Sequence record: NC_019517.1
Origin: Escherichia phage FV3
DNA length: 64,000 nucleotides
Direction: 5' to 3' (one strand)
Shown here piece after piece: positions 6,869 through 36,376 of this stretch (positions within the stretch are counted from its first letter, which is position 1; every line of letters starts with the position of its first letter). Position numbers and translations under genes: made by a program. The notes beneath the pieces are model-generated. The model ran no database searches and was not told where the DNA came from. It worked only from the letters and a program-made list of their open reading frames with translations.

Positions 6869-7357
6869 ATGAAACTTGATAAAAATGTTCAACGAAAAGC
6901 TTTCTTGGATATGATCGCATATTCAGAAGGCACAGATAATGGTAGACAACCTACCAATGATCGGGGATACGATGTTATAGTCGGTGGCAAGCTGTTCAGC
7001 GATTACAGCAAGCATCCGGGTGTTTACGTTAAGCTAAATGCTAAACTTACCTCTTCTGCTGCTGGGCGTTACCAGATTTTGGAGAAGTTTGCTAAACACT
7101 ACATGAAACAGTTAGGATTACCAGATTTTGGCCCTGCCAGTCAGGACAAGATTGCGTTGCAACTGATCCGTGAGTGTAAGGCGCTCGATGATATTGATGA
7201 AGGTCGTATTCACCAAGCTATTTATAAATGCCGCAGCCGCTGGGCAAGCTTCCCACCACCGCCAGGGGCTGGAAAGCTGTACAATCAGCGAGCAGAAAGT
7301 ATAGACAAGATGCTGGATATCTTTAAGAAGTCAGGTGGAGTTGTTACGGATGAGTAA
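6869..7357 (+). CDS. endolysin, lambda R-type lytic transglycosylase
   Basis: near-identical blocks to lambda R: QRKAFLDM, SEGTDNGRQ, GYDVIVGG, GRYQ. Confidence 0.9.
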   Translation: MKLDKNVQRKAFLDMIAYSEGTDNGRQPTNDRGYDVIVGGKLFSDYSKHPGVYVKLNAKLTSSAAGRYQILEKFAKHYMKQLGLPDFGPASQDKIALQLIRECKALDDIDEGRIHQAIYKCRSRWASFPPPPGAGKLYNQRAESIDKMLDIFKKSGGVVTDE

Positions 7358-8033
7358 CGTGATTGACTGGTGGAGTGTCTTTAGATACGACACAGGCACT
7401 GGAAGGTTGTTTTGGAAGGACCCGCCAAAAAACAAACCTCAACTAGTGGGAAAGGAGGCTGGATGTACTAACATGGACGGGTACAGGGATATAGTCTATC
7501 GTGGCGTGCATTACTACAGGCATAGATTGGTGTGGGAGATGCATTATGGACCAATCCCAGAAGGGTATGAAGTTGATCACATAAAGCCACTTTTCTATTC
7601 CGATGGTGTTGCTGATGATAGGGTAGAAAACCTACAACTGTTAACACCAGAAGAAAACGCAAAAAAGGCGGCAGATGACGGATGCCTGGCACGTAAGATA
7701 CCTAAATCCAATACTGGACACTTGGGTGTATATTTTCATGCTAGGACTGGAAGGTATGCTGCTTTTGGTAAGGTAGGTCATTACTATAAGAAAGACCTAG
7801 GGGAGTACGATACCTTAGAAGAGGCCATTGCTGCTCAAAAGTCTTTTGAAAGTGGCACGTTTGTCAGGGAATATCGTGGACATCCTTTAGGGAGGGATAA
7901 ATCTAGAGGTGTCAGATTTGAAGCAGATAGAGGCAAATGGAAAGTAACTTTCAGAGGAAAAACGTTAGGTAGGTTTGACACCAAAGAGTCTGCTGAAGCG
8001 TGTTACGCAAAGGCTCTTGCTGAAAGATTGTAA
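7335..8033 (+). CDS. free-standing HNH homing endonuclease with AP2-type DNA-binding repeats
   Basis: HNH block EVDHIKP...DRVENLQLLTPEENAKK; two AP2-like repeats (GVYFHARTGRYAAFGK, GVRFEADRGKWKVTFRG). Confidence 0.8.
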   Translation: MELLRMSNVIDWWSVFRYDTGTGRLFWKDPPKNKPQLVGKEAGCTNMDGYRDIVYRGVHYYRHRLVWEMHYGPIPEGYEVDHIKPLFYSDGVADDRVENLQLLTPEENAKKAADDGCLARKIPKSNTGHLGVYFHARTGRYAAFGKVGHYYKKDLGEYDTLEEAIAAQKSFESGTFVREYRGHPLGRDKSRGVRFEADRGKWKVTFRGKTLGRFDTKESAEACYAKALAERL

Positions 8034-8317: not shown

Positions 8318-8782
8318 GTGGAAGACGGACGTTTAATGAAGTCTGAACGCAGACTTATTGTGCAACTAATCCCAGAAACAGCTTGGTATAATAACCTCAG
8401 AAACGCTGTGAAGAAGAGTGAGTGGGATAAGATCCGTAAGAAGTGCTACAGAGAAGCTAACTACACTTGTGAGGTGTGTGGCGGTAAAGGCAGCAAACAC
8501 CCAGTGGAGTGTCATGAACTTTACACTTTCGAAGATGGGGTGATCCGGCTTGTCGGACTGATAGCTCTGTGTCCAGATTGTCACACATCGGTGCATCCTG
8601 GGTTAGCAAATATCCGTGGGAAGTATGCTCAGGCAGTTAATCAGTTGGCTAAGGTGAATAAGATCACCAAGGGTATGGCGGAGGCGTATTACCGAGACTG
8701 CTTTGCAGAGTGGCGTGAGCTTAGTAAAGTTCCAGAATGGAGAACTGACTTTTCGTGGATAGAGGGTTACCTTGATGGCTAA
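8318..8782 (+). CDS. hypothetical Zn-binding protein, possible HNH-type nuclease
   Basis: CEVCGG...H...CPDCH cysteine/histidine cluster. Confidence 0.35.
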   Translation: MEDGRLMKSERRLIVQLIPETAWYNNLRNAVKKSEWDKIRKKCYREANYTCEVCGGKGSKHPVECHELYTFEDGVIRLVGLIALCPDCHTSVHPGLANIRGKYAQAVNQLAKVNKITKGMAEAYYRDCFAEWRELSKVPEWRTDFSWIEGYLDG

Positions 8783-9124: not shown

Positions 9125-9433
9125 ATGCTTAAAATTTTTATTGTTGAAGATAAAGATATTGTCCAGTTGTATGCAAACGAGAATCATAAAGGTATGATCC
9201 TGAAGAAGGCAAGCAACCTTCATGAAAACACAATTCAACCTGGTGATGTAATTAAGATCTCTGGTTATCTGATACCAGACTCCTTGATGAAAATAACTCA
9301 TCATTGGGGTTCCAATCCGTTCCTTTTTGAAAAGTATTGGGATGTTGAGTCACTTATTGCAGAAAGTGATGATGCATTCCATTACAGCATCCAACCATCT
9401 TGCAGAATAACTAACAGGAGGGTCTTTGAGTAG
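9125..9433 (+). CDS. hypothetical protein (102 aa)
   Basis: track ORF with promoter and SD. Confidence 0.45.
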   Translation: MLKIFIVEDKDIVQLYANENHKGMILKKASNLHENTIQPGDVIKISGYLIPDSLMKITHHWGSNPFLFEKYWDVESLIAESDDAFHYSIQPSCRITNRRVFE

Positions 9434-10565
9434 AGAATATCCACTTATTGAGTCCATAGATTGTCTTGCCGATCTTCTTGAACCTGACGCTATAGTCTAT
9501 TATGACTTCGATCAGGTTGCATATCAAGCTGCAGCAAGTTGTGAAAAAAGGACAATTGAGGTAACACATAAAGCCTCCGGACGTAAGAAGGTGTTCAAAA
9601 CACGAACAGAGTTTTGGGGGAGGCAGAAGAACGCAGTTGGCGGTTGGTTAAAGGCCGAGAACACCAACCGTGAAGCTGCATGTAAAAAAGCTGGCAAGGA
9701 GTTTATTCCGTGGACACGTGAAGATTTCGATGTCTTGGATATCCAAACCCCTGATCCTGTAGAGAACTGCTTGCACACAATTAAGTGTAAAGCTAACGCA
9801 GTCCTTAACTATCTTGGTATTCCTGAAGATCGGTGCGTAGGAGTGCTTGGAGGCACAGGTAATTTCAGACTAGATCTTCCCATGCCGGAACGATATAAAG
9901 CCAACCGTAACAATACTCTTCGACCACTGTTGCTTGAAGATGCAAGACAGTATCTCCAAAAGCAGTATAACGCTCAGGTGATCAACGGTATTGAAGCTGA
10001 CGACTGGTTAGCTATCCAGCAATTTGAAGGTTGGAACCACTACCAGAAAACAGGTAAGTTCAACAAGTTTATTATCTCTATAGATAAGGACCAGCGAACA
10101 CTTCCTGGGCTTGTATTCGATCCGATGAGGAACGATAAAGGTGATTTTGTAAGAGAAACTCCTATGCTTATTGATAACGGTATGGGTAACATATTCATGA
10201 AACCAAACGGAGATGTTGGTGGGTATGGAATGTTGTTCTTCGGTTATCAAATGCTATGTGGTGACTCAGCTGACAATATTAAGCCTTACCAAGGTCTTAT
10301 TGGTAAAGGAAAGTTTGGAGATGCATCTGCATTCTCCTTGCTGTCTCAGTGCAGCACACCGAAGGAGATGTGGTTAGCAATCATTGATCAGTATAAAAAA
10401 TGGTTTCCGAAAGGTGCCGTTAAGTATACTGATTTCAATGGTATTGACCGTAGGATTTCCGTAGGTCAGTGGATGAGTATAATTTTCGACTGTTTGTATA
10501 TGAAGCGATCATTCAATGACCAAACAAAACTTGTTAATGTTCTTAGAAATGTTGGAGCAATTTGA
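9426..10565 (+). CDS. 5'-3' exonuclease / flap endonuclease (RNase H-like)
   Basis: FEN motifs IVYYDFDQVAY, GIEADDWLAI, LCGDSADNIKPYQGLIGKGKFGD; TTG start in track. Confidence 0.8.
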   Translation: MSREYPLIESIDCLADLLEPDAIVYYDFDQVAYQAAASCEKRTIEVTHKASGRKKVFKTRTEFWGRQKNAVGGWLKAENTNREAACKKAGKEFIPWTREDFDVLDIQTPDPVENCLHTIKCKANAVLNYLGIPEDRCVGVLGGTGNFRLDLPMPERYKANRNNTLRPLLLEDARQYLQKQYNAQVINGIEADDWLAIQQFEGWNHYQKTGKFNKFIISIDKDQRTLPGLVFDPMRNDKGDFVRETPMLIDNGMGNIFMKPNGDVGGYGMLFFGYQMLCGDSADNIKPYQGLIGKGKFGDASAFSLLSQCSTPKEMWLAIIDQYKKWFPKGAVKYTDFNGIDRRISVGQWMSIIFDCLYMKRSFNDQTKLVNVLRNVGAI

Positions 10566-10888
10566 TGACTAAAAACTCTGTAGATAATGCAATTATGGAA
10601 GCTGTTTTTGAGGATGACCATACAACAGGCACCATTAAAACAAAAAATACATTTATTGTTGCCACAGGTATGTGGCGGTTGTATGAAGATGACACTATTG
10701 CATACATCTTGTATACTGATGATTACGCAGATGATCGTGTATGGTCTGCTGTTTTAAAAGAGGACTGTGAGCTGATCGAGGGTGAGCGGTTATGCATGTT
10801 TACCAGTGTGGAAACAGATGTTAAGCTTTGCTCTCTTGTGTTGTTCAAAGACAAAGCTTATGCCCCAGATGAAGAGGAAACAGTATGA
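10562..10888 (+). CDS. hypothetical protein (108 aa)
   Basis: track ORF; no motif. Confidence 0.4.
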   Translation: MMTKNSVDNAIMEAVFEDDHTTGTIKTKNTFIVATGMWRLYEDDTIAYILYTDDYADDRVWSAVLKEDCELIEGERLCMFTSVETDVKLCSLVLFKDKAYAPDEEETV

Positions 10889-11514
10889 GAGAAAGACTGC
10901 TGTCTATAGACCAGTCTCTTACCCACACGGCCTGCGTTGTATGGGACGATGGTAGGCCTGTTCATAAGGTTGTGTTACGAACCCAAAGCTCGTCTGCAAA
11001 AGAGAAGAAACCAGGGACGGTTTCTTTTGCAACAGCTGCTGAGCGTATTGACTGGATCTGCAAACAGGTTAGATATTATATCCACACGCACCACGTTGAC
11101 ACCGTGGTCATGGAAGGGCTCTCCTTTGGATCGCGAGGAGATGCCACACGTGAACTGGCTGGGTTGTTTTACGGTCTTGAAGTTATGCTCTGGGATGCTT
11201 TAGCAGATTGTGAAAATGACGGCCTGTTTAAGGTCCACACAGTGACACCAACAACTGCCAAAAAGTTTGCTCGTAGTCATCTTCCTGAAGAACTTGCTTT
11301 TGAGGAGAAGAAAAAGCTTGACAAAAAGACGGGTAAAGAGCATACTGTGAAGAAGCCTGTTACGATGGATAAAAAGTTGATGGTTAAGGCCTGTGAAGTA
11401 TCTGAACCTGGGTTCCTAGATGGGATCAATTTGGTACAAGGTAAGGCCGATCTCGCAGATGCTTATTGGATAGGCAGGGCGCATCTGGAGGGATTATCGC
11501 AAAGCGTAAAATAA
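10885..11514 (+). CDS. hypothetical protein, possible RuvC-like (RNase H fold) nuclease
   Basis: LSIDQSLTHTACVVWDD and VVMEGLSFG resemble RuvC/YqgF motifs; weak. Confidence 0.4.
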   Translation: MRERLLSIDQSLTHTACVVWDDGRPVHKVVLRTQSSSAKEKKPGTVSFATAAERIDWICKQVRYYIHTHHVDTVVMEGLSFGSRGDATRELAGLFYGLEVMLWDALADCENDGLFKVHTVTPTTAKKFARSHLPEELAFEEKKKLDKKTGKEHTVKKPVTMDKKLMVKACEVSEPGFLDGINLVQGKADLADAYWIGRAHLEGLSQSVK

Positions 11515-12041
11515 GAAAGAAAGCTGTCAAAGCCCCCGTTCATAACGGGTGGCTAAAAGATTCTAAGGATATAGCCAACTTTCGGAAAGAATTGTCAGAA
11601 GAGCAGGATGGTCTTGATCCGATCTTGTGCGAACCACTTCGTAAGCCTTGTTTAGATCATGATCATCTGACTGGTCGTTGCAGGGGTGTTTTGTCCCAAT
11701 GCACTAATACCTTTGAGGGGTATGTGCTTAAATACTGGATGAAATACTGTAACGAGTATACAGATTGCAGTTTATCAGAGGCGTTGCGCCGGATGGCTGA
11801 CTATCTGGAGAAAGACTACAGCGACTTCCCGCTCCACAAAAACTACAGGGACGATATGACAAAGTTCTTGAGGAGATGCTCTAAAGCTACGATTATTGCA
11901 CGGGCAGAATCGGATCTCGATCTTGTCATTAATTCAGAGTACACCAAGCATGAGGCTATTGAGGCCTACATGCAGGAGTTTATAAAGAAAACTGAGGAGA
12001 GAGATTTCTATGGAGACGAAAAAGGTATTCAATCCTTGTGA
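11466..12041 (+). CDS. endonuclease VII-like Holliday junction resolvase
   Basis: CEPLRKPCLDHDH...GRCRGVLSQCTNTFEG matches T4 gp49 HLDHDH...RGLLCNLCNAAEG core; start uncertain (overlaps upstream ORF). Confidence 0.75.
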   Translation: MDRQGASGGIIAKRKIRKKAVKAPVHNGWLKDSKDIANFRKELSEEQDGLDPILCEPLRKPCLDHDHLTGRCRGVLSQCTNTFEGYVLKYWMKYCNEYTDCSLSEALRRMADYLEKDYSDFPLHKNYRDDMTKFLRRCSKATIIARAESDLDLVINSEYTKHEAIEAYMQEFIKKTEERDFYGDEKGIQSL

Positions 12042-12231
12042 TTCAGTTCTGATCAGGATGAAATACCGTAACTGGAAAGGTGTTGTTGCAGATCGCTGCG
12101 TTACTGAGCCTAGTTTATGGTTTGGCTCTACAGATTATCATAAAGAAGATCAGTGGTTGATGCATGCATTTGATGTAGACAAGGGCGAATATCGTGACTT
12201 CGCTTTAAAAGACATTCTTCAGTTTTACTAA
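12010..12231 (+). CDS. hypothetical protein (73 aa)
   Basis: track ORF; no motif. Confidence 0.35.
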   Translation: METKKVFNPCDSVLIRMKYRNWKGVVADRCVTEPSLWFGSTDYHKEDQWLMHAFDVDKGEYRDFALKDILQFY

Positions 12232-12243
12232 GGAATCTTAACG

Positions 12244-13227
12244 ATGATGACAAAGTTAACTCTTGAGCAAATTTTAACACTAAAGCAACAGGGATACACC
12301 AATAGACAAATTGCTCGTGAATTTCTAGGTCGTGAGTCACGTGAGAGCTGGATCCGGCTACAGCTTAAACGTGCACAAGAGAATATGTCAGAGATTGTAG
12401 GAGAGGCAACGGAGCGCTTCCTTGAAGAACACAAAGGTGCTAAAGTTTGGGTGTATGATACAGAGACATCCCCAACAAACGGCTGGTTCTTTGGGCATTA
12501 TAAGACCAACATTCAAACCTGCGGTATTGAAATTATGCCCTATATGCTAACTTTCGCAGGTAAATGGTTAGACAGCCCCAGTGTGGTTGACTGTGCTCTT
12601 CCTGATTACAAAATGTGGGGCGAGGATATCCACAACGATCTTGAGCTGATTCAAGATTTGTGGTATTATCTGGATAAATGTGATGTAGCAGTAGCACACA
12701 ACTCTGGTTTTGACTGTGGGTGGGCCAACCAACGATTTGCATTTCACGGTTTGCCGCCAACAAGCCCATACAAAGAGGTTGACACCCTCAAGATGATTAA
12801 AAAGGCATTCCGTTTGAATGCAAACACGTTAGAGTATGCATGTAAATACTTCCAACTGGCCCGACAGAAACTAATTGACCACACATTTGAAATGTGGATC
12901 AAGTGTGTTCATGGTGATCTTGAGGCGTTTAAACAGATGCGGGAGTATAATGTTGGGGACATCTTGTCTCTGGAAGGCCTATATTTGCTGGCGCGTCCGT
13001 TTGCTAAGCAGCACCCCAACATGTCGTTGTACTACCAAGATGAGGAGTCAAAAGTTCGTTGCCCACGTTGTGGTGGAGAACACCTTCACGAGGAAGAGGC
13101 TTTGGCGTATACTCAACTGAGTGCATTTAAAACCTACCGCTGCGAAGGTTGTGGATCTGTTGTTCGTGATCGTAACAACATCCGTACCCGAGAAGAGATG
13201 AAAAACACCCTGATTCAGATAATCTGA
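12244..13227 (+). CDS. DnaQ-like 3'-5' exonuclease with N-terminal HTH and C-terminal Cys4 cluster
   Basis: Exo I VWVYDTET, Exo III AHNSGFDCGW; N-terminal GYTNRQIAREF HTH-like; CPRCGG...CEGCG. Confidence 0.6.
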   Translation: MMTKLTLEQILTLKQQGYTNRQIAREFLGRESRESWIRLQLKRAQENMSEIVGEATERFLEEHKGAKVWVYDTETSPTNGWFFGHYKTNIQTCGIEIMPYMLTFAGKWLDSPSVVDCALPDYKMWGEDIHNDLELIQDLWYYLDKCDVAVAHNSGFDCGWANQRFAFHGLPPTSPYKEVDTLKMIKKAFRLNANTLEYACKYFQLARQKLIDHTFEMWIKCVHGDLEAFKQMREYNVGDILSLEGLYLLARPFAKQHPNMSLYYQDEESKVRCPRCGGEHLHEEEALAYTQLSAFKTYRCEGCGSVVRDRNNIRTREEMKNTLIQII

Positions 13228-17215: not shown

Positions 17216-17677
17216 ATGAGTAATGTTATGATTCCTAAAAAGACATTTATTTCAGTTACTTTAGATTTCCTATCTACTGTTCCCGGGTTTAACGTTCGCA
17301 CACGAAACGGTCTCCGAGCTGCACTCTTTGCTGTAGGGTTTGATTTAAAAAATATTGATGTTCTTCGTGGAAAAAACGTTAGATGCAAAAATAAGCCAAC
17401 CCATTATCGAAAGGCAGATGTATTTGCTGGTGTCATGCGTGCAGACTTTAGATACCCGCAGATGTATAACGGTGTAGATATTTTAGATGTAGATAAAGCA
17501 CCCGGTGAGGCAATGCTTGTTCAAGATCTTCCGTATGATATCCCCGTAGAAGATCGTGTTAATGTGAGAAAGTATACAAAACAATCTGAAAAGGCTGAAG
17601 ATATTCATATTGTTGATGAACCTTTCAATTTTGAAGATCTGCATCGCCTGGAAAAATTATTCGGTATTGAAAGCTAA
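17216..17677 (+). CDS. hypothetical protein (153 aa)
   Basis: in-frame ATG with SD GGAGA after the 5'-UTR hairpin; track ORF begins earlier at 17177. Confidence 0.45.
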   Translation: MSNVMIPKKTFISVTLDFLSTVPGFNVRTRNGLRAALFAVGFDLKNIDVLRGKNVRCKNKPTHYRKADVFAGVMRADFRYPQMYNGVDILDVDKAPGEAMLVQDLPYDIPVEDRVNVRKYTKQSEKAEDIHIVDEPFNFEDLHRLEKLFGIES

Positions 17678-17687
17678 GGTGGTGAAG

Positions 17688-17918
17688 ATGAGTCATAACT
17701 CCAAGTGGAAGGATCTTGGTTTTGCAAGTCGGGCAGAGTATGTTGGTTGGCTTTGGTTCAACGGTCTGACAAACGATATTAAAATGTATGATGATGTTTA
17801 TTATGATGAATATACAGGTAAAATTATAAATATCTCTGTAGAAGAGGATACTTTTATCCAACAAGACACTGATACCTGCCTTGATAAATACGTTGATGAA
17901 GTGGAGGAAGCAAATTGA
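17688..17918 (+). CDS. hypothetical protein (76 aa)
   Basis: internal ATG with SD AAGGTGG; track ORF 17610..17918. Confidence 0.4.
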   Translation: MSHNSKWKDLGFASRAEYVGWLWFNGLTNDIKMYDDVYYDEYTGKIINISVEEDTFIQQDTDTCLDKYVDEVEEAN

Positions 17919-20230
17919 TCACCAAGGTAATTAAAAGCAACGGATGTGAAGTGGCATTCGATCCAGAACGTTTAAATAAGGCAGCTATTTTCGGTGACGA
18001 CGGTAACGGCAATTGGTCACATATTGCACTTGATGCATACAAACGGCTGTATGATGGGTGTACAACCAAAGAAGTTAACCAAGCTATCATAGACTCCTGT
18101 GTTAGCCGTAAAGACGAAGCTCATTCTCGTATGGCTGGTCGTGTTCTTATCGGTCAGATTTATAAAGAGGCTTTTGGAGGATTTACAAAGATCCCTTCCT
18201 TACCCTCATTTTACAATACCATGGTTGATAAAGGGTATTGGGAGGATATGGGTTATAGCTTTACCGAGTTAAACACTTTAGACGCTGTTATTGATCACAG
18301 TAAAGATCTCGGTTATGGCTATGCAGTCCTTAAACAGTTTCGCGACAAATATGGGATCAAGGATACTCTTAAAGACACCCTGTTTGAATCTCCCCAGATG
18401 ATGTTTATGGGGATAGCAATGGCTGTCATGAAGAATATGCCGAAAGAACGTCGTATCAACGATGTTGTAAAATTATACACTTATCTGTCGGACTTGAAGA
18501 TTAATGCCCCGACACCGTACTTAAACGGTCTACGCACAGGTAAGACAGGGTATGCATCTTGTTGCGTAATAAAAGCTGACGATACAGCAAAATCTATTGG
18601 TGTGGCACGTGAAGTTGCGTACACAATGACGGTTAACCAAGCAGGTATTGGCTACTATCTATCATCAAGATCTGCAGGTGATGGTGTTCGTGGTAACACT
18701 ATTAAACATATGGGCAAGCTTCCATATTATCGAGGCATTGATGCTGGGGTTAAGGAGAATAGACAACAATCACGCGGAGGTTCGGCAACGGTATCATTCC
18801 TTGCGCTAGATCCCCAGATTGATGAACTGATCCGTTTGAGAAACCCTATGACTGTTGCTTCAAAAAGAATCAACACTATGGACTACTCTATAGGTATTAA
18901 TAGATCATTTATCAACCGTGTGGCTAAGAATTTAGATTGGATGCTTGTTTCTTATAAGCACGCACCTCAACTGCACGAGGGTATCTTCACCATGTCTATG
19001 GATGAGTTTGATGCAGAGGTTGATCGTATCGCTAAAGATGACAGCATTCCTAAAACATGGATCCGTGCTAGAGACCTTGCTGTTGAACTGATCACGCAGC
19101 GTACCGAGGTAGGCAGGCTGTATGTGTACTGGACAGATGAGATGAATAGGCATACACCTTTTAAAGATGTAATCTATTCAAGTAATCTGTGTGCAGAGAT
19201 AGCCCTTCCGACAAAAGGCTATTCAGATATGCGTAATATCTTCAAGTACGATGCTGATGATGGTGAGGTTGCATTGTGCTTCCTATCATCCCTTGTAGCT
19301 GGAAGGGTTACCCCAGAGGAGTATGAGGATGTTGCATACTACACTGTGCTTATGATTGACAATGTTATGGAAATCATGACATATCCGTATGAAAATATGG
19401 AGAGCACTGTTAAAAAACGCAGATCCATCGGGGTTGGCCTTACCAATATTGCACATTTTATTGCCAGCCACAAGGTTGCTTACGGGTCTCCTGAAAGTAA
19501 ACAGCTTGTTCACGATCTTGCAGAGCTTCACAGCTACAGCTTGCATAAGGCAAGTTTACGATTGGCAAAAGAGCGTGGTGTCTGCGAGTGGATGCATAAA
19601 ACAAAATACCCAGAGGGTTGGTTACCAATCGACACTTATAACAAAGAGGTCGATAGTGTGGTGAAAGATCCTTCTCTTAAGCAGGATTGGGAAGGGTTAC
19701 GTAAAGAAATTATTGAAAACGGTGGACTACGTAATAGCGTTCTTGAAGCATATATGCCTAATGAAAGCTCCTCGTTGGCAACAAACACAACTAACGGGGT
19801 TTATCCTGTCCGTGAGCACATTATCTTTAAAAAGTCGCCACAAGGACAGGTGCTGTTTATCGTTCCTGAATATGATGAACTGAAAGAGTATTATACCTCG
19901 GCTTGGGACGTTGATACTAACGACATGATTGATATGTATGCTGTGATTCAAAAATTCACAGGACAGGCAATCAGTGCTGACCTATATATTGATTACACCA
20001 AGTTGAAAGATGGTAAAATTTCAATGAAGGAGCAGCTTGGGTATCTTATCCGTGCTACTAAATTCGGGATGAAGACATGGTATTACTTAAACTCTCGGGT
20101 TGGTGCTGGTGACTCTTTGACAGAGGAGCTTCACGCGAAGAAACAGGCTGAAGATGAAACCAGAAAGAACTATCCTTTGATTGCAGATAGTTCAGTTGAA
20201 GATCCGTATTGCGAAAGTTGTGCACTGTAA
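17915..20230 (+). CDS. nrdA: ribonucleotide reductase class I alpha subunit
   Basis: 771 aa; N-terminal ATP cone, active-site NLCAEI block, C-terminal CESCAL. Confidence 0.95.
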   Translation: MITKVIKSNGCEVAFDPERLNKAAIFGDDGNGNWSHIALDAYKRLYDGCTTKEVNQAIIDSCVSRKDEAHSRMAGRVLIGQIYKEAFGGFTKIPSLPSFYNTMVDKGYWEDMGYSFTELNTLDAVIDHSKDLGYGYAVLKQFRDKYGIKDTLKDTLFESPQMMFMGIAMAVMKNMPKERRINDVVKLYTYLSDLKINAPTPYLNGLRTGKTGYASCCVIKADDTAKSIGVAREVAYTMTVNQAGIGYYLSSRSAGDGVRGNTIKHMGKLPYYRGIDAGVKENRQQSRGGSATVSFLALDPQIDELIRLRNPMTVASKRINTMDYSIGINRSFINRVAKNLDWMLVSYKHAPQLHEGIFTMSMDEFDAEVDRIAKDDSIPKTWIRARDLAVELITQRTEVGRLYVYWTDEMNRHTPFKDVIYSSNLCAEIALPTKGYSDMRNIFKYDADDGEVALCFLSSLVAGRVTPEEYEDVAYYTVLMIDNVMEIMTYPYENMESTVKKRRSIGVGLTNIAHFIASHKVAYGSPESKQLVHDLAELHSYSLHKASLRLAKERGVCEWMHKTKYPEGWLPIDTYNKEVDSVVKDPSLKQDWEGLRKEIIENGGLRNSVLEAYMPNESSSLATNTTNGVYPVREHIIFKKSPQGQVLFIVPEYDELKEYYTSAWDVDTNDMIDMYAVIQKFTGQAISADLYIDYTKLKDGKISMKEQLGYLIRATKFGMKTWYYLNSRVGAGDSLTEELHAKKQAEDETRKNYPLIADSSVEDPYCESCAL

Positions 20231-20237
20231 TTTAAAA

Positions 20238-20257
20238 GGGGCTTCGGCCCCATTTTA
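20238..20257 (+). terminator. rho-independent terminator
   Basis: GGGGCTTCGGCCCC hairpin followed by ATTTT. Confidence 0.65.
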
Positions 20258-20268
20258 GAGGTAGAATA

Positions 20269-21357
20269 ATGTCCGTATTTAATACTGAGAACACTGCTCA
20301 TAAAACTGGTGATTATCCGCTGTTTCTAGGACAGCAGATGGGGATGTACGACTCTATTAACAAAAAGTATCCACAGCTGTTTGAACTATACAAAAAACAA
20401 AAAGAACAAGATTGGGCAGAGGACGAAGTAGATTTGTCACAGTCTATTTCTGATTTCGTAACATGCTCAAAGTCAACTTACGATGTGATGGTGCAGACAC
20501 TGATGTGGCAATGGGAGGCAGACAGTGTTGCAGCAAGATCTATCATTTGTCTGTTTTCACCATTTATCACCAACAGTGAGCTTTTCACCTTGTTGATGAA
20601 GCAGTCTGAGATTGAGGTTCTTCATGCACTAACTTACTCAGAGATTGTTAGACAATGCCTTCCTAATGCTCGCGAGATTATAGAAGAGATTCAGGAAAAC
20701 CAGAACGTGCTGAGCAGATCTGGAATTATTGTCAAATATATGCAAGAGCTTGAGGTTATTGGTGCAAAATACCGACTGGATCCTTCCAGTGTTGAAGAAG
20801 ATGTTGTACGGAAATGTATCCTTAGAGCACTTTTTGCACTTTTAGCGCTAGAAAGTATTGAGTTTATTGCAAGTTTTGCATGTACGTTCGCAGTAGCTGA
20901 GCAAGGTATTTTTGTTCAAGTGGCACAACTTGTTCAAAAAATTATGCTTGATGAAATGCTGCATTCGAAAGGTGATTTTGCTATCATCGATATCCTGCTT
21001 GATGATCCTGCATGGGAGCAAAGCTTCCTTGAGATTAAGGGTGAGTTAAAAGAAATTCTTGACGAAGTGCGGACCAAGGAGTACGGTTGGAGTGACTATA
21101 TTTTCAGCGAAGGAAGAGCAATTATAGGTCTTAACTCACCATTACTTAAAGAATGGGTTGACTATAACTGCTCACCGATTTATGATTACTACAACATCGA
21201 CAAAGACTTTGTGCCGCCAACAAAAGACCCGCTACCGTTTATGCAGGTGTGGATGAAACCTTCACTGCAACAGACGGCTAACCAGGAAATGTCTAACACT
21301 GACTACCGCGTCAACACAACTGTTAACGACGCTGAAGAAGAAATTTGGGAGTTTTAA
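20269..21357 (+). CDS. nrdB: ribonucleotide reductase class I beta subunit
   Basis: 362 aa directly downstream of nrdA; conserved E/H-rich helices. Confidence 0.9.
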   Translation: MSVFNTENTAHKTGDYPLFLGQQMGMYDSINKKYPQLFELYKKQKEQDWAEDEVDLSQSISDFVTCSKSTYDVMVQTLMWQWEADSVAARSIICLFSPFITNSELFTLLMKQSEIEVLHALTYSEIVRQCLPNAREIIEEIQENQNVLSRSGIIVKYMQELEVIGAKYRLDPSSVEEDVVRKCILRALFALLALESIEFIASFACTFAVAEQGIFVQVAQLVQKIMLDEMLHSKGDFAIIDILLDDPAWEQSFLEIKGELKEILDEVRTKEYGWSDYIFSEGRAIIGLNSPLLKEWVDYNCSPIYDYYNIDKDFVPPTKDPLPFMQVWMKPSLQQTANQEMSNTDYRVNTTVNDAEEEIWEF

Positions 21358-21360: not shown

Positions 21361-21639
21361 ATGAGCTGCGAAAAATCTTTTTTCATCATCATTTACGGTA
21401 AGGATAACTGCCCACATTGTGTAAGAGCAAAAGAATTTGCAGTCAGTAAAGGCATACCTTTCGTATACAAGACGCTAGGTGAAGGATACACAAAAGAAGA
21501 GCTTATCGAGAAGTGTAGCCCATTTGTTCCCAGAACGTTGCCTCAGATCTTCTTGGAAAGCAACCTTGACAGTATCCACATAGGTGGTGCTGACGATTTC
21601 ATCTCTTTTGTTAAGAATGGTTTTGGAGAGAAAAAGTGA
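21361..21639 (+). CDS. glutaredoxin/NrdH-like redoxin
   Basis: CPHC active site near N-terminus, 92 aa, between nrdB and nrdD. Confidence 0.75.
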   Translation: MSCEKSFFIIIYGKDNCPHCVRAKEFAVSKGIPFVYKTLGEGYTKEELIEKCSPFVPRTLPQIFLESNLDSIHIGGADDFISFVKNGFGEKK

Positions 21640-22496
21640 AAGTTGTAAAACGGGACGGTAGAGAAGAGTTTTATAACGGAATTAAGGTGATCAAGGCGGC
21701 AGAGTCCGCCTTACTTGAGTCTGGACATACTGAAGAAGAAGCTTACCGGATTGCCTGTGCGGTTAATGAAGTTGTTGCCAACAATCTGCCAACTGACCAG
21801 TGCACGATCTCTGTAAAAAATATCCATATCCTTGTTGAAGATGCTCTTATGGATATGGGTTTAAAATGTGCAGCCAGAGAATACATCCAGTATAGACAGA
21901 CAAGAGATAATAACAGAGAGGCAGGTGGAAAACTGCTTGCCGATATTAGTGGCTTCTTGGATCGTACTTGTGATGAATTTACAAAAGAAAACGCAAATAA
22001 GCCTACTAATCATGTACACACTCATCGTGACCTGCTTGCAGGAATCCTTAGCAAACATCTTGCATCAACACAGATCCTGCCAGACCGTGTCTCAGAAGAG
22101 CACAACAAAGGCTTCATCCATGTGCATGATCTTGACTACCTGATCAGTCCGTTAACAAACTGTTGTTTGGTGAATTATCCGGATATGCTGGAAAACGGAT
22201 TCAACATTGGCAACGCCCATGTCAGTAAGCCGAAGTCAATAGGGGTTGCAACAACAATCCTTAGCCAAATCTCTAGTGCAGTAGCTAGTGCTCAATATGG
22301 CGGTCAGACCATGAGTCATATTGATCATTATTTGGCACAGTATGCTGAAGCAACTTATGAGAAGAACCTTAAATTTTGTCAGGAACATTGGTTGCCAGAT
22401 GCTGAGACTGTTGCAATGCAAATGACAGATAAAGACGTGTTTGATAGTATGCAAACTTTGCTCTACCAAATCAATACGTTAACTTCTGTCAACGGT
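21636..22496 (+). CDS. nrdD: anaerobic ribonucleotide reductase NrdD, exon 1
   Basis: ATP cone VVKRDGREEFY; ends ...INTLTSVNG; track stop TAA is the first three intron nucleotides. Confidence 0.8.
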
Positions 22497-23294
22497 TAAC
22501 AAACTGGCCGTTGTAAAACTCTCCTAACCTCATAAGAGGGGTCGGTAAATCCGGCTAACGGGGAACGCTAAGGCGAAAGCTATGCCAATCCCGTGACTAG
22601 TTCTTACAGGAGTTGGAACGGTTGTAACGACTAACGAAAGGCAGAGATGCTTGACAAACATTTCTGAACCGAGTAGTGTAGGGGTTAGTTGAAATACTAA
22701 CTTCGAAAGGGAGAGACTCTATGAAAAAGATCATTCTTAATGGTGAAGAATCGAACTACGTGATTGATGAGGTGGGAAACGTATACGGAAAACGTGGAAT
22801 GCTGCACCCCATATTGTGGGGAGGTTATGGAAAAGGTAACAAGCATGTTAAACGCCGCTATATGTATTCTTTCAACCACAAAGGTAAGAAGATTCGAATC
22901 CAAACTTCAAGGGTTGTTGCCTTGTATTGTTTGCCAGATGTCCCAGAAGACCCTGAAAACTGGGAAGTGAATCATAAAGATGGCAATACATTGAATGATC
23001 ATCCGTCTAACCTAGAGTGGGTTTTGCCGGAAGATAATAAGAGACATGCTTTCCGAACAGGGCTTTGTCCAGGCAAGTGCTACAGGAAAGTGCAGGCATA
23101 CCAAGGGAAAACCTTGGTGGGTGAATATCCTTCACTCTATGCCTGTGCAAAAGCCTTAAATTTGAACGTAGGGAACGTCCATAGGGCTATCGAAGGAAAT
23201 GCCGAAGGTAAGCATCTCACAATAAAGGGTTATTATCTTATTGAAGTAGAGTAAGAGATAGTCTGGCCCTGTGGAAACACAGGGGTGGAGACAG
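22497..23294 (+). mobile_element. group I intron in nrdD carrying an HNH homing endonuclease ORF
   Basis: P1 pairing CAACGGT with GGCCGTTG, R-like GACTA and S-like GAGATAGTC elements, P9 hairpin with GAAA loop, terminal G; boundaries inferred. Confidence 0.65.
22721..23254 (+). CDS. intron-encoded HNH homing endonuclease
   Basis: HNH block EVNHKDGNTLNDHPSNLEW; C-terminal DNA-binding module; SD GGGAGAG. Confidence 0.85.
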   Translation: MKKIILNGEESNYVIDEVGNVYGKRGMLHPILWGGYGKGNKHVKRRYMYSFNHKGKKIRIQTSRVVALYCLPDVPEDPENWEVNHKDGNTLNDHPSNLEWVLPEDNKRHAFRTGLCPGKCYRKVQAYQGKTLVGEYPSLYACAKALNLNVGNVHRAIEGNAEGKHLTIKGYYLIEVE

Positions 23295-24554
23295 CAGACT
23301 CCATTCATCACATTAAGTTTAGGGCTGGATACTTCGGTCTTTGGTAGAATGATTACCAAAAACTACTTGAAAGTTCACAAAATGGGTCTTGGTGAAGAAC
23401 GGATCACACCTGTGTTCCCTAAAGTGCTGTTCTTCTTAGAGGAGGGTGTCAACATGAACCCTGGGGATCCTAACTACAATTTGAAACGATTGGCCCTAGA
23501 ATGCTCTGCAGAGCGGATTTATCCTGACTTTGTTTCTGTTCCGCTAAATCGTAAAGTGACAGGTTCAACAGACGGCAAAGTAACAAGCATGGGATGTAGG
23601 TCGTTCCTTGGCAAATACGTTACCCCGGAGGGTGATGAAAAATACCTTGGCAGATTCAACTTGGGTGTTGTTAGCCTTAACCTACCAATGATTGCGGCAA
23701 AAGCTAAGACGGAAGGTATTGATTTCTTTGCAGTTCTTGACGAATACTTGGATCTTGCATACGAGGCTCACCTTGTAAGGGTTAACCGTCTAAAAGGAAC
23801 AAAGGCAGGGCAGAACCCTATCATGTGGTGTGAAGGAGCTCTTGCTCGCCTGGATCCTGAAGAGAGTATCGATAAACTCTTCTATGACGGGTACGCTTCC
23901 ATCAGTATTGGGTATATTGGTGTGTATGAAACCTGTCAGATTTTGGGCAGAGAGGGTGACAAGGCTTTAGCTCTTGGAATCCTTCAGCACATGAAAGATG
24001 CTTGTGATCGATATAAGAAGGAAAGTGGACTAGCATTTAGCTTGTACGGCACACCTTCTGAGAGTTTATGCTATAAAGCTGCAACCTGTCTGGATCGTGA
24101 ATACCCAGAAGTGTTGAAGCACGAGCATGAATACCTCACCAACAGTTTCCATCAGCCGGTATGGATCAATAGCTCGCCTTTTGATAAGTGGAAGTATGAG
24201 GAAGGTTTTGCTATGATCTCCTCTGGTGGCAACATTGGGGACATAGAGACACCGAATCTGAAAAACAACTTAGATGCTTTAGAAGCTCTTGTTGATTTCG
24301 GATATAAACATATTATGTATTTTGGTATTAACCAGCCTGTGGATAAATGTCTTAAGTGTGGATTCTCTGGCGAGTTCAGTGCAACAGCTAAAGGCTTTGT
24401 ATGCCCAGAGTGTGGAAACCATGAAGAAGGAACGATCAGTGTGATCAGACGCGTATCCGGGTATCTGTCCAGTCCAAACTCCCGCCCTTACAATAAGGGT
24501 AAGCAAGCTGAGGTTATAGAACGGGTTAAGCACTACGGAAGTTGTGGTTGCTGA
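23295..24554 (+). CDS. nrdD: anaerobic ribonucleotide reductase NrdD, exon 2
   Basis: QTPFITLSLGLDTS aligns with E. coli NrdD QVPFSSLNFGTDTS; Zn ribbon CLKCG...CPECG; glycyl radical motif RVSGYL. Confidence 0.8.
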   Translation, partial: QTPFITLSLGLDTSVFGRMITKNYLKVHKMGLGEERITPVFPKVLFFLEEGVNMNPGDPNYNLKRLALECSAERIYPDFVSVPLNRKVTGSTDGKVTSMGCRSFLGKYVTPEGDEKYLGRFNLGVVSLNLPMIAAKAKTEGIDFFAVLDEYLDLAYEAHLVRVNRLKGTKAGQNPIMWCEGALARLDPEESIDKLFYDGYASISIGYIGVYETCQILGREGDKALALGILQHMKDACDRYKKESGLAFSLYGTPSESLCYKAATCLDREYPEVLKHEHEYLTNSFHQPVWINSSPFDKWKYEEGFAMISSGGNIGDIETPNLKNNLDALEALVDFGYKHIMYFGINQPVDKCLKCGFSGEFSATAKGFVCPECGNHEEGTISVIRRVSGYLSSPNSRPYNKGKQAEVIERVKHYGSCGC

Positions 24555-31058: not shown

Positions 31059-31516
31059 CGATGTTTGTTAAATATGTAAAAACGTGCCTCAACAACCTTG
31101 GTAGAGAGCATTGGTACACCTTGCTTGAAAAAGGAGAAATTTTAACAAAATCTGGAAAGATAACTCTGATACCTTTGGATGATAAAGACCCGTCACTACT
31201 TGTCATAGATGATTACGTTACAGGTGTGTCGTACGAGGTCTCTGTGGAGAGGTTAATACGCAGATCTGGAGGGCCTTATGACCGAAGAGAGTATGTTTTC
31301 GATTCTGTTACAGAGAAGGAGGATCCGTCTCTAATGTTTAGGATGGTAATCAGGGATATGAAATCATCTATAAATAGGATTGTAAAGGACATTAAGGAGC
31401 CTTTTAGGGTAAAAGTTAAGAAGTTTTTTGATTCTAAGATTAACATACTCGCCGTTGTGCTAGGCGTAATTCAACTTCTGTTAATTTTGCACTATCTTGA
31501 ACTGTTGTTCAAGTAG
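31055..31516 (+). CDS. hypothetical protein with C-terminal TM helix (153 aa)
   Basis: track ORF. Confidence 0.45.
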   Translation: MTMFVKYVKTCLNNLGREHWYTLLEKGEILTKSGKITLIPLDDKDPSLLVIDDYVTGVSYEVSVERLIRRSGGPYDRREYVFDSVTEKEDPSLMFRMVIRDMKSSINRIVKDIKEPFRVKVKKFFDSKINILAVVLGVIQLLLILHYLELLFK

Positions 31517-31576
31517 TGTGCAACAAGGCACAAAGGATGTGCCATGATTAAATAAACTAAGAAAGAGGTAGAGAGA

Positions 31577-31924
31577 ATGCCAAAGATTAAGTCGATATTA
31601 ATGTGGGCAGCTGTTGTGGCTTTTGTAGGATACTGGACTTGGGAAACTGAATTAAAAGATATCGGGTATACCAGTCTTGAGAGCAAGGCATGCATTGGCA
31701 TAACCGATGCATTCAGGCAAAATGCTATGGATCACGAATGTGTCGATGCAGATATAGATGAGAAACTGTCTAAGGACAAGGATTTTTACCATGGTCATGC
31801 CTTGCTTGATAGTGGTGACACTGTAGAATTCTGGTCGTGGTTCCGTGAAGATGGAACAATAAAGACAGCAGTAAAGATTTCCAACAAAGAGTTAATGCTG
31901 TTGCAGCAGAAGGAGGTGCAATGA
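31577..31924 (+). CDS. hypothetical membrane-anchored protein (115 aa)
   Basis: N-terminal hydrophobic segment. Confidence 0.45.
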   Translation: MPKIKSILMWAAVVAFVGYWTWETELKDIGYTSLESKACIGITDAFRQNAMDHECVDADIDEKLSKDKDFYHGHALLDSGDTVEFWSWFREDGTIKTAVKISNKELMLLQQKEVQ

Positions 31925-32208
31925 TCTGGATATCCTACACTGATGGCACCATGCTGTATACTGCAGGTACTAGGTATGAAGTTCAGGAGGACGATAAAAA
32001 ATTTATCGTAAAAACATTTGACAAGGACGAAAACCTTTTGTTAGAATTGACTTACAAGGTTGGGGAGGTATCTAGCATCCAATTGGATTGCGGTCATAAA
32101 GATAACCCACTCAAGAAACCTGGGGTAGGTAAAGCTTCAGAAGAACGCCTGTCTCGTATTGCAGAAAGCGTTTCTGCACAAAAATCTAAGAAGGGGACTA
32201 GAAAATGA
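31921..32208 (+). CDS. hypothetical protein (95 aa)
   Basis: track ORF. Confidence 0.4.
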   Translation: MIWISYTDGTMLYTAGTRYEVQEDDKKFIVKTFDKDENLLLELTYKVGEVSSIQLDCGHKDNPLKKPGVGKASEERLSRIAESVSAQKSKKGTRK

Positions 32209-32399
32209 AAAACTTACGTTTTAACACTTATTACTACAACACTTTGAATGATTTGTATTATATTATTCGAAGTAAAAGTCCTGAAACAGTCCTATTCTGC
32301 CGCGAACCTTTCAAAGGGGAGGAAGTAGAGTCTGAGATGAATGTTAGCCATATTACCTCTTTGTTGCTCTCAGGTGCAATGGAAGAAGCAATATTCTAA
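32205..32399 (+). CDS. hypothetical protein (64 aa)
   Basis: track ORF. Confidence 0.35.
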   Translation: MKNLRFNTYYYNTLNDLYYIIRSKSPETVLFCREPFKGEEVESEMNVSHITSLLLSGAMEEAIF

Positions 32400-32417
32400 A
32401 CCAGGCGGGAGGGTTTT

Positions 32418-32603
32418 ATGAAGCACTATTGCCTGTTTGGTAGGATGGGTGTAGAGTGTGATTGGGTTTTCTTAAAACTTGTCAGCATCCGAGAGTCAAT
32501 CCCAGAGGAAGAGCAAGAAAGTGAGCTGATGTCATGGATCAGCTATTACGGCAACACTTTCCGGTATGTCAAAATGGAAGGGCTGCCAAGCGAGGATGAT
32601 TGA
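32418..32603 (+). CDS. hypothetical protein (61 aa)
   Basis: track ORF. Confidence 0.35.
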   Translation: MKHYCLFGRMGVECDWVFLKLVSIRESIPEEEQESELMSWISYYGNTFRYVKMEGLPSEDD

Positions 32604-32698
32604 TTATGATTGCATCAATATTAACGTTTATGGGTGGCGTGGCGGTCGGATTCATTATTTGCCTGTTTATAGTGATTATGTCTATGCGAGGCTGACTT

Positions 32699-32983
32699 AT
32701 GAAACTGTTCGAGTGGTTTAAAAAGTTTAAATACCGGGCCGTTGCTGTATCGAAATGGACTGTCCGCTGGGTGGACAATGATGGAACACAAATTCCAGGT
32801 GATCAGGATACCGGATACTGGGTTATGATGGAGAACGGATTTGGGAAAAGGAAGTTTAAATGTGTTGGTGCTCCTACCCTTTTAAATGTTAGAAGTGTGC
32901 CAGGGTACAGCACTCTGGTTGTTTGGGAGCTATCCGGTGTTCCTCCTGCCAATGTGCAATACTTGCCAAATTCAGAAAAATAA
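32699..32983 (+). CDS. hypothetical protein (94 aa)
   Basis: track ORF. Confidence 0.4.
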   Translation: MKLFEWFKKFKYRAVAVSKWTVRWVDNDGTQIPGDQDTGYWVMMENGFGKRKFKCVGAPTLLNVRSVPGYSTLVVWELSGVPPANVQYLPNSEK

Positions 32984-32995
32984 AAGGAGAAAATA

Positions 32996-33280
32996 ATGAG
33001 CAATGGTATTAGCAACAATGCTGCAGAGTTTAAAGTGATCTGTAAAGGCACTTATTGGATAGTGAAACAGAAGGTGTACCTATTCGGTTTCATACCGTTT
33101 TGGCAGAGATTTTGCTGGGGAGCTAACGAGCTTAAGAGATACGCCACCAAGGCTATGGCACTTATTGGTATAGCTGAATACATTGCTGCCAGGGACAGAG
33201 AGGGGAAAACTTGTTACTACACTGCTGACGAGATTCGTAACAGTGTTTACGTTCCACAACCGCCCGATGGAGACCGCTGA
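32996..33280 (+). CDS. hypothetical protein (94 aa)
   Basis: track ORF. Confidence 0.4.
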   Translation: MSNGISNNAAEFKVICKGTYWIVKQKVYLFGFIPFWQRFCWGANELKRYATKAMALIGIAEYIAARDREGKTCYYTADEIRNSVYVPQPPDGDR

Positions 33281-33504
33281 TGAAAGTGAAAGTTTTAGAT
33301 TCAAACTTCTATATTGGTCAAGAGCCTTTAGTTGGAAAAGTGTTTACCGCTATCCCTAACGAAGATTATCCTGACCTTTTAAAAATAAAAGGGGAAGATC
33401 TTATTGCCGCTGGCGCGTCTCAGGAATGCTTTGACAGTCAGTGGGCCTACAACTTTGCCCTAGGGGAGGATGTGGAGATAGTGGAGGACGATTATGAAGG
33501 TTAA
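33280..33504 (+). CDS. small acidic protein, paralog family A
   Basis: MKVKVLDSN...GEDLIAAGA...VEIVEDDYEG; net charge about -11 in 74 aa. Confidence 0.5.
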   Translation: MKVKVLDSNFYIGQEPLVGKVFTAIPNEDYPDLLKIKGEDLIAAGASQECFDSQWAYNFALGEDVEIVEDDYEG

Positions 33505-33748
33505 AATTCTTGACTCTAACGTCTACTTGGGACAATCATTCCTGAAGGGAAAGGTAGTACCTGCTGTATACTTCGAAGGGTTGCCGTGGGATGATCCTGT
33601 GCGGCAAAATCACAGCTATGTAGGCCACAATGTGGTGTTCATTTTGGGATCAGACCTGATCGCGGCTGGTGCTCCGGAATATTATTTCGGAGAGGACTCG
33701 TATTATGCCTTTGGGGTAGGGTCAGATGCAGATATTTTAGAGCCGTGA
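33494..33748 (+). CDS. small acidic protein, paralog family A
   Basis: MKVKILDSN...GSDLIAAGA; adjacent tandem paralog. Confidence 0.5.
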   Translation: MKVKILDSNVYLGQSFLKGKVVPAVYFEGLPWDDPVRQNHSYVGHNVVFILGSDLIAAGAPEYYFGEDSYYAFGVGSDADILEP

Positions 33749-34159
33749 TTGGGGACTGTTGTGAAAAATAAACTGTTCAAAGTTACAATGAAAATTCGCG
33801 GAGCTTGGAGCGTAAAGCAAGGGCGTATCCCGGAATTTGAGAAAGACTTCTACGTAGTCTCCACCTCTGAAGAGGCTGCATGCTGGCAGGCTGGCTATGC
33901 CTATGCAAGAACTTGGTACGAAGGGTACCAAACTGGGGGCTATGACGGAGAAATTGTCAGTAAGGGTGTGGAAGAAATTAATGTGTTGACAAGTGAAAAA
34001 GTTTTTGTTATAGTGCATCCTGATTCCAGAGTGAAGCATTACTGGAATGCCAGAACAAAAACCTGGACACCATTTGCAGATTCTGCTACACCACTTTTAA
34101 ACCAGAAAGCTCTTGACTCTGCCCCGAGCTACGGGGTTGTTGAAGAAAAAATAAGCTGA
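33749..34159 (+). CDS. hypothetical protein, paralog family B
   Basis: shares VHPDSRVKHYWNARTKTWTP-like block with ORF 35963. Confidence 0.45.
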   Translation: MGTVVKNKLFKVTMKIRGAWSVKQGRIPEFEKDFYVVSTSEEAACWQAGYAYARTWYEGYQTGGYDGEIVSKGVEEINVLTSEKVFVIVHPDSRVKHYWNARTKTWTPFADSATPLLNQKALDSAPSYGVVEEKIS

Positions 34160-34176
34160 AATAGTGGGGTACTTAC

Positions 34177-34467
34177 ATGATGGATTTAGTTTTGGATACT
34201 GATAACACCGAATCGTTTAAAAAAGATGGTGTAATAAGCATGGACCAATCCTGCCATGCCAAGATTGACTCAAAATGGACCTACAAGTTTGACGGTGAGA
34301 TCTTCGCAAATGATGAGAAGGTTGTGGATGCTGTAGCCATTTTAAACGCTTTAGGGTATGACCCTGTGAACTCATTGATCAAGGATCCTGTTGAGTTTGC
34401 AGAGTATGTTCGTAAAATGGCAGATCTTGCAGTAGATATTTTAAAAACTATCGACGACAAGCTGTAA
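34177..34467 (+). CDS. hypothetical protein (96 aa)
   Basis: track ORF. Confidence 0.4.
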   Translation: MMDLVLDTDNTESFKKDGVISMDQSCHAKIDSKWTYKFDGEIFANDEKVVDAVAILNALGYDPVNSLIKDPVEFAEYVRKMADLAVDILKTIDDKL

Positions 34468-34473
34468 AAACTG

Positions 34474-34502
34474 TTGACACAACATTTGATCTTTAGTATC
34501 AT
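34474..34502 (+). promoter_or_regulatory. sigma70-like promoter TTGACA-N17-TATCAT
   Basis: consensus hexamers upstream of the HPF homolog. Confidence 0.55.
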
Positions 34503-34549
34503 TATTTCCAAAGAGGGTTTGGTTCCCTCTTCTTTAAAAGGAGCACGTT

Positions 34550-36358: not shown

Positions 36359-36376
36359 TTTTATTCTACACAGGTG

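Follow-up and report, generated by a model that had tools for sequence, protein, structure and literature searches.

The nuclease gene block

The window analysed here, a stretch of 64,000 nucleotides (nt) from Escherichia phage FV3 (sequence record NC_019517.1), carries between positions 9426 and 13227 six open reading frames (ORFs) on the plus strand. The last of these encodes a predicted stand-alone 3'-5' exonuclease of 327 amino acids (aa), which has a helix-turn-helix (HTH) segment in front of the exonuclease core and a four-cysteine cluster behind it. A preliminary description of the sequence had read this region as a recombination and repair cluster, and all six ORFs are present and match PHROG families (E values 1e-25 to 1e-111). 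The predicted products are as follows.

9426..10565, plus strand: FEN-type 5'-3' exonuclease / flap endonuclease (T5 D15 / T7 gp6-like), 379 aa (phrog_107, E value 1.4e-71)
10562..10888, plus strand: conserved protein, function unassigned, 108 aa (phrog_7583, E value 6.4e-56)
10885..11514, plus strand: RuvC-like Holliday junction resolvase, 209 aa (phrog_159, E value 6e-39)
11466..12041, plus strand: endonuclease VII (T4 gp49-like), up to 191 aa (phrog_423, E value 3e-37)
12010..12231, plus strand: conserved protein, function unassigned, weak WYL / SH3-like similarity, 73 aa (phrog_3715, E value 1.2e-25)
12244..13227, plus strand: stand-alone DEDDy 3'-5' exonuclease with HTH and zinc ribbon, 327 aa (phrog_403, E value 9.3e-111)

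Neighbouring genes in the block overlap by 4–49 nt or stand no more than 13 nt apart, and because of this close packing the block reads as one translationally coupled unit. A DNA ligase gene is located 3 kb upstream, and genes for a methyltransferase, a deoxynucleoside monophosphate (dNMP) kinase, a 5'-nucleotidase, ThyX and ribonucleotide reductase (RNR) follow directly downstream, as judged from related records; it is at this block that the replication/recombination module meets the nucleotide-metabolism module. In a nucleotide search, the 3.8-kb block was found at 90–99% nucleotide identity in 119 phage records. The closest is that of Escherichia phage HMD-6 (98.8% nucleotide identity), followed by many Vequintavirus (rV5-like) myophages of E. 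coli, including the BASEL phage EduardKellenberger/Bas59. By sequence, the source phage is itself a Vequintavirus (rV5-like) and is predicted to be lytic. Both the gene block and the domain layout of the exonuclease are already known from public phage records, and the 327-aa protein is 100% identical to the deposited 'DnaQ-like 3'-5' exonuclease' of HMD-6 (XLV54082).

The 327-aa exonuclease: family, active site and fold

The product of the last gene of the block can be divided into three parts.

12244..12438, plus strand: aa 1–65, HTH domain and linker
12439..13008, plus strand: aa 66–255, RNase H-fold DEDDy exonuclease core with ExoI (D72/E74), ExoII (N153/D157) and ExoIII (Y235/D239)
13051..13161, plus strand: aa 270–306, predicted Cys4 zinc ribbon, C273-x2-C276 and C300-x2-C303

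Residues 2–326 of the protein match positions 2–320 of the 321-position profile of phrog_403 (E value 9.3e-111), a family labelled 'DNA polymerase exonuclease subunit'. An exhaustive search gave 3461 cluster representatives at E values up to 1e-3, and 2463 at E values up to 1e-10, the clusters being defined at the 50% identity level. In profile searches, relatives sharing 25–47% identity carry PF13482 (RNase_H_2, 'YprB-like') and some of them PF10108 (PolB_exo2). The 327-aa protein itself reaches the gathering score of neither model, its only match being to PF00929 (RNase_T) with 21.7 bits against a cut-off of 24.

The core includes the motifs YDTETS, HNSGFD and YNVGD. In an alignment of 271 members of the phrog_403 family, on which all conservation counts for this protein are based, D72 is kept in 265, E74 in 266, D157 in 269, Y235 in 269 and D239 in 270 sequences, and N153 in 260. 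There are no substitutions at the four acidic positions and a single one (His) at Y235, the other non-matching rows being gaps. The preliminary description had named degenerate exonuclease motifs as something that would refute it; the motifs are not degenerate, and the sequence predicts an intact active site of the two-metal-ion DEDDy type. The assignment to DEDDy and not to DEDDh follows from motif III, which is Y-x3-D (Y235-N-V-G-D239) in the FV3 protein and H-x4-D in E. coli DnaQ. The earlier designation of the protein as a DnaQ-like 3'-5' exonuclease consequently stands as far as the predicted activity and the conserved DEDD site are concerned, but the enzyme is of the DEDDy polymerase-exonuclease type and not of the DEDDh DnaQ/epsilon type. 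With E. coli DnaQ (the epsilon subunit of Pol III) and other DEDDh enzymes, such as RNase T, it shares the superfamily fold, and it weakly matches the dnaQ models and two structures, 2ido and 1j53. The dnaQ equivalog cut-offs are not reached (NF004316, 26.7 bits against 196; TIGR01406, 23 bits against 222.7), the NCBIfam models gave only sub-threshold dnaQ and polC matches, and among the PADLOC defence and anti-defence models only a generic DEDDh match was found.

The AlphaFold model of the protein has a mean predicted local distance difference test score (pLDDT) of 77.5, rising to approximately 80–97 in the exonuclease core. The core superposes on epsilon as well as on several polymerase exonuclease domains (Pol epsilon, KOD/Pfu/Tgo and HSV; Foldseek, E value 4e-5). 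Its fold matches among viruses are to phage proteins named 'YprB RNase H-like', e.g., the one from LKA1 (Q0E5Y0; E value 1.6e-24). The core also matches positions 645–839 of phrog_17, a profile that the phage polymerase matches from position 670, and the exonuclease domain of T7 gp5 itself matches PF13482. The ExoIII motifs are alike, MREYNVGD in the 327-aa protein and MMDYNVQD in T7. Comparison of the family profile with single sequences by hhalign, an insensitive procedure, aligned only the ExoIII motif of T7 gp5 (38% probability) and nothing in the N-terminus of the phage polymerase. The exonuclease domains of T7 gp5 and of the family B polymerases therefore resemble the FV3 protein in the DEDDy site, the RNase H fold and the similar ExoIII motif; unlike them, the FV3 protein is a stand-alone enzyme that has no polymerase domain and includes an HTH and a zinc ribbon. 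T4 DexA, too, is a 3'-5' exonuclease from the DnaQ-like superfamily that the phage encodes as a separate protein, apart from its polymerase. No HTH or zinc ribbon is known in DexA, and its likeness to the FV3 exonuclease is a functional analogy. The Bacillus subtilis enzyme MrfB/YprB is characterized as a DEDDh enzyme with a TPR domain and not with an HTH and a zinc ribbon (PMC11194089).

The HTH segment and the zinc ribbon

The segment GYTNRQIAREF, in which an HTH had been suspected, occupies residues 17–27. In the AlphaFold model the N-terminus forms helices at residues 7–15, 20–27 and 31–47 (pLDDT 72–83 over residues 1–40), followed by a low-confidence helix at residues 50–62, and the first three make a three-helix bundle with the turn between helices 2 and 3. 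The isolated N-terminal segment matches HTH_38 (E value 0.0032; 17.6 bits against a cut-off of 27) and HTH_7 (E value 0.0089), both below the Pfam cut-offs. Among 80 non-redundant N-termini of the family, however, HTH_23 is found in 18 and HTH_38 in 18, with a best E value of 2e-6, and many of them show a textbook HTH pattern, e.g., G(L/F)S.R.IA..LG..KSTV.DYL. Taken together, the modelled helices and the matches within the family indicate that the N-terminal HTH is real. An extension of 40–110 aa precedes ExoI in 236 of the 271 homologues, and in the remaining 35 (approximately 13%) it is either shorter or longer. The mean column identity of the HTH segment is 12%.

The four cysteines noted at the C-terminus are C273, C276, C300 and C303 (RCPRCGG ... 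YRCEGCGS). They form two CxxC knuckles on modelled beta strands (residues 281–289, 294–300 and 306–309; pLDDT 48–70), and there are many weak matches to zinc-ribbon families (E values 0.002–0.06). From the model, we predict this region to be a zinc ribbon. Of the 271 homologues, 156 retain the complete set of four cysteines. C273 is retained in at least 268, as is C303; in a marine subgroup the aligned cysteine positions read C-S-[FY]-C. A terminase-like role was considered and rejected, the weak GpA_ATPase match covering only the zinc-ribbon residues 270–312 and the phage having a normal large terminase.

The preliminary description regarded this architecture as unfamiliar. It is indeed unusual in comparison with the cellular proofreading subunits, but it is the norm in phrog_403, a large and annotated phage family. 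It is not new, because the 40–110 aa extension is so widespread among the homologues, many of these extensions are HTH-like, and gp062 of PAK_P3 already carries the RefSeq annotation 'Homeodomain-like domain; HTH_23 ... DNA polymerase type-B family'. The family members of HMD-6, Bas59 (bas59_0178), PAK_P3 (gp062), Xp10 (34L), JG068 (gp24), ICP1 (gp189) and LKA1 share the DEDDy motifs and the order HTH, exonuclease, zinc ribbon, except that the phiKMV-like and Xp10 members have no HTH, their matches beginning at approximately residues 65–101 of the 327-aa protein. The most likely function of the HTH and the zinc ribbon is to hold the exonuclease core on DNA; they would supply the DNA affinity that the body of a polymerase gives to exonuclease domains acting in cis.

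The other products of the block

The first gene of the block has a TTG start preceded by AGGAGGG. Its product has only a weak match to the Pfam model PF02739 (5_3_exonuc_N; E value 0.053, below the cut-off) and none in a sequence search of the PDB. The motifs GIEADDWLA, SIDKDQ and LCGDSADNIKPYQGLIGKG can be read in the translation; GIEADD, SIDKD and GDSADNI..G.G, all present, are signature motifs of the FEN family. Together with the phrog_107 match, these agree with the FEN-type 5' nuclease of the preliminary description, and related phage records label the gene 5'-exonuclease or exodeoxyribonuclease. The 108-aa ORF that follows overlaps both neighbouring genes by 4 nt and has no match in Pfam or NCBIfam. 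The 73-aa ORF further downstream has a WYL match below the cut-off (E value 0.013).

For the 209-aa protein, a sequence search of the PDB returned nothing useful and a profile search only a marginal RuvC match (E value 0.56); PF02075 was detected only in its distant homologues. The AlphaFold model has a mean pLDDT of 91.9 and a predicted template-modelling (TM) score of 0.88. Its top 14 Foldseek matches in the PDB are all RuvC structures (target TM scores 0.69–0.76), including the RuvC of Lactococcus phage bIL67. The acidic residues D9, E77, D189 and D192 are invariant or nearly so among 32 homologues. What had been put forward as a possible RuvC-like nuclease is, on the strength of the predicted structure and of this D-E-D-D tetrad, a RuvC-like resolvase.

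The 191-aa ORF exceeds the gathering score of PF02945 (31.8 bits against a cut-off of 23.6), and its residues 29–176 are spanned by the phrog_423 match. It also matches T4 endonuclease VII (PDB: 1e7d; E value 2e-4; T4 residues 37–152), with the catalytic LDHDH and N..E preserved, as expected of the endonuclease VII-like resolvase proposed earlier. The first CxxC of the T4 enzyme is replaced with C-x5-C in FV3. The start of this gene is uncertain, since neither ATG nor GTG is available and the sole candidates are TTG codons at 11466, 11592 and 11625, none of which has a convincing Shine-Dalgarno sequence before it. The Bas59 record starts the gene at the TTG corresponding to 11592; the family homology begins at ORF residues 29–38, upstream of that codon. 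In the HMD-6 record the gene is unannotated. The ORF lies in the -1 frame relative to the gene for the RuvC-like protein and shares 49 nt with it. Fusion of the two products by programmed -1 frameshifting was considered and set aside, since no canonical slippery heptamer (X XXY YYZ) occurs in the overlap (gtaaaataa).

Gene neighbourhood in related phages

The phrog_403 members named above resemble FV3, with no material difference, in that the gene is located downstream of one for a 5' exonuclease and one for an endonuclease VII or HNH protein. Genes for a 5' exonuclease, an endonuclease VII and the exonuclease follow in this order in 36L-35L-34L of Xp10 and in gp23-24-25 of Burkholderia phage Bp-AMP1. 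In JG068, the products gp21, gp22 and gp24 have been assigned by HHpred to the folds of T5 5'-exonuclease, T4 endonuclease VII and an epsilon-like protein, in the same order (PMC3765740). PAK_P3 has a 5' exonuclease gene, an HNH gene and the exonuclease gene, followed by ThyX and RNR, and ICP1 has an exodeoxyribonuclease gene 4 kb upstream of the exonuclease gene and ThyX downstream of it. A metagenomic relative with 47% identity carries endonuclease VII upstream and Thy1/RNR downstream. The recurrence of the FEN, endonuclease VII and exonuclease order in Xp10 and the phiKMV-like phages favours a function in the processing of DNA ends and branches.

Other homologues occupy different surroundings. 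One adjoins rIIB in a T4-like phage. Relatives at 25–28% identity are located in phage contigs of approximately 35–45 kb, between replication genes of the ERF, DnaB-loader or NinG type and portal, capsid or terminase genes; in the 6 kb neighbouring the homologue in these small contigs no polymerase was found. The T4-like homologue and the polymerase-free surroundings argue against an obligatory role as a proofreading subunit. In the small-contig subgroup, two of the four zinc-ribbon cysteines are lost.

The phage DNA polymerase

Vequintaviruses have a family A DNA polymerase of the T7-like kind, which in Bas59 is 925 aa long. The N-terminus of the Bas59 protein aligns with the exonuclease domain of T7 gp5, the corresponding motifs being as follows.

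ExoI: FDFEAS in the Vequintavirus polymerase, SDIEAN in T7 gp5
ExoII: HNCYSYD in the Vequintavirus polymerase, HNGHKYD in T7 gp5
ExoIII: DRVFED in the Vequintavirus polymerase, DYNVQD in T7 gp5

All four acidic exonuclease residues are kept in the Vequintavirus polymerase (Bas59 gene, record positions 17637–20414), and the Tyr of ExoIII is replaced with Arg. Because the phage polymerase has an exonuclease domain of its own, a role of the 327-aa exonuclease as a proofreading subunit of that polymerase is doubtful and indeed improbable. The family name 'DNA polymerase exonuclease subunit', widespread as it is, is consequently doubtful and, in FV3, unsupported.

In the window, the polymerase gene is interrupted (60805–63998, minus strand), with residues 142–808 encoded at 63998–61998 and residues 809–925 at 61155–60805. 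The insert of approximately 840 bp includes an HNH endonuclease ORF at 61351–61857 (phrog_59; E value 1e-37), and the interval 61206–62007 aligns with the whole of RF00028, the group I intron model, though below threshold (30.4 bits, gathering score 50; E value 1.7e-5). Splicing HNH introns have been documented in the polymerase gene of the related phage CB7 (PMC7344957).

Proposed role of the block

What can be regarded as established for the 327-aa protein is the family to which it belongs, the integrity of its active site, the folds of its domains and the conservation of gene order. Beyond this, we read the block as a conserved DNA end and branch processing set of Vequintavirus, with the 327-aa protein as its 3'-end enzyme, and would give this reading a probability of roughly 0.55. 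In the proposed scheme, the 327-aa exonuclease would trim 3' tails, flaps or mismatched 3' ends, the FEN-type nuclease would remove 5' flaps and primers, and the RuvC-like resolvase and endonuclease VII would cut branches and junctions. Acting with the ligase, these nucleases would mature the branched concatemers arising from recombination-dependent replication before headful packaging. They may in addition aid the breakdown of host DNA.

Several observations weigh against this reading. The linker and zinc-ribbon parts of the 327-aa model are of low confidence. The Arg that replaces Tyr in ExoIII of the polymerase leaves room for a helper exonuclease. The synteny is missing in mycobacteriophage Enceladus, in Aeromonas phage CC2 and in one relative with 48% identity. 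Finally, the searchable literature on rV5-like, phiKMV-like and other phages yielded genome descriptions only, and no biochemical or genetic data on any member of the exonuclease family, so that the physiological role is read from the gene neighbourhood. That so common a family, found in ICP1, PAK_P3, the BASEL Vequintaviruses and many mycobacteriophages, should have no measured activity or phenotype in that literature is what gives it its residual interest.

We also put forward, tentatively, a more general proposal. The proteins with the order HTH, DEDDy exonuclease, zinc ribbon would possibly constitute a polymerase-independent family that has been mislabelled 'polymerase subunit', and whose job would be DNA-bound 3' end processing in recombination-dependent replication or genome maturation. 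It is hinted at by the contigs in which the gene lies near ERF, DnaB-loader or NinG genes and without a polymerase within 6 kb, and by its adjacency to portal and terminase genes.

The position of the exonuclease gene at the border of the nucleotide-metabolism block, a border that recurs in PAK_P3, ICP1 and the metagenomic relatives, brings to mind a nuclease for the scavenging of host DNA. Degradation of the host DNA involves DexA in T4 and gp3 and gp6 in T7, and a DexA-like enzyme could, together with the FEN-type nuclease and the endonucleases, yield mononucleotides for the dNMP kinase, ThyX and RNR. Small temperate-like phage contigs that have no nucleotide-metabolism genes nevertheless carry the family, and an HTH would be needless for a bulk degradative enzyme; we regard scavenging as a rather unlikely main function.

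We consider it improbable that the enzyme is a trans-acting proofreading subunit of the family A polymerase of the phage, which would remove misincorporated 3' nucleotides by binding to the polymerase or replisome. Homology links its core to the exonuclease part at the N-terminus of T7-type polymerases, as seen in phrog_17, PF13482 and the likeness of ExoIII, the proofreading of the polymerase itself could be weakened by the Arg in place of the T7 Tyr, and the gene lies 3–5 kb downstream of the polymerase gene in Xp10, Bp-AMP1 and PAK_P3. In FV3, however, the two genes are approximately 48 kb apart in the window (approximately 45 kb in EduardKellenberger), and the polymerase keeps its complete set of acidic exonuclease residues. 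Moreover, the T4-like homologue lacks such a family A polymerase context, the contigs described above have no polymerase in the 6 kb surrounding the gene, and both the HTH and the zinc ribbon are foreign to known proofreading subunits.

A sequence-directed or regulatory protein, whose HTH would serve autoregulation or else direct the exonuclease to a specific target (defence-related nucleic acid, a packaging site or an origin), is very unlikely: the HTH is of the transposase, resolvase or small-terminase kind (HTH_23, HTH_38 and HTH_7) and the gene adjoins portal and terminase genes in some small phage contigs, but the segment is poorly conserved, about one in eight of the sampled homologues falls outside the usual extension length, and no defence or anti-defence model is matched beyond the generic DEDDh.

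Other features of the window

The base composition of the window is uniform, with a G+C content of approximately 42–44%. The GC skew changes sign at approximately 39–40 kb, where there is a strand switch typical of Vequintavirus genomes. From approximately 31500 to 47700 there is no ORF of 150 aa or more, and the counterpart of this region in Vequintavirus records is a run of numerous small early genes annotated as hypothetical, with both strands used. Neither tRNA genes nor other Rfam families were found at gathering score anywhere in the window.

Two HNH homing-endonuclease genes are located on the plus strand just upstream of the nuclease block, at 7335–8033 and 8318–8782. One encodes an HNH_3 and an AP2-like domain and the other belongs to phrog_5200; the pair flanks an ORF for a small membrane protein and lies downstream of the endolysin gene.

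The gene nrdD for the anaerobic ribonucleotide reductase is in two pieces on the plus strand, at 21636–24554. The first piece (21636–22499) corresponds to the ATP-cone and positions 1–154 of the NRDD profile, and the second (23271–24554) to NRDD positions 155–562 and the glycyl-radical domain, with an HNH_3 endonuclease ORF (22721–23254) between them. The Rfam scan of the window gave no match to an intron model at gathering score; the gene may be interrupted by an intron or may have been split by a free-standing homing endonuclease. In all, the window contains at least four HNH genes.

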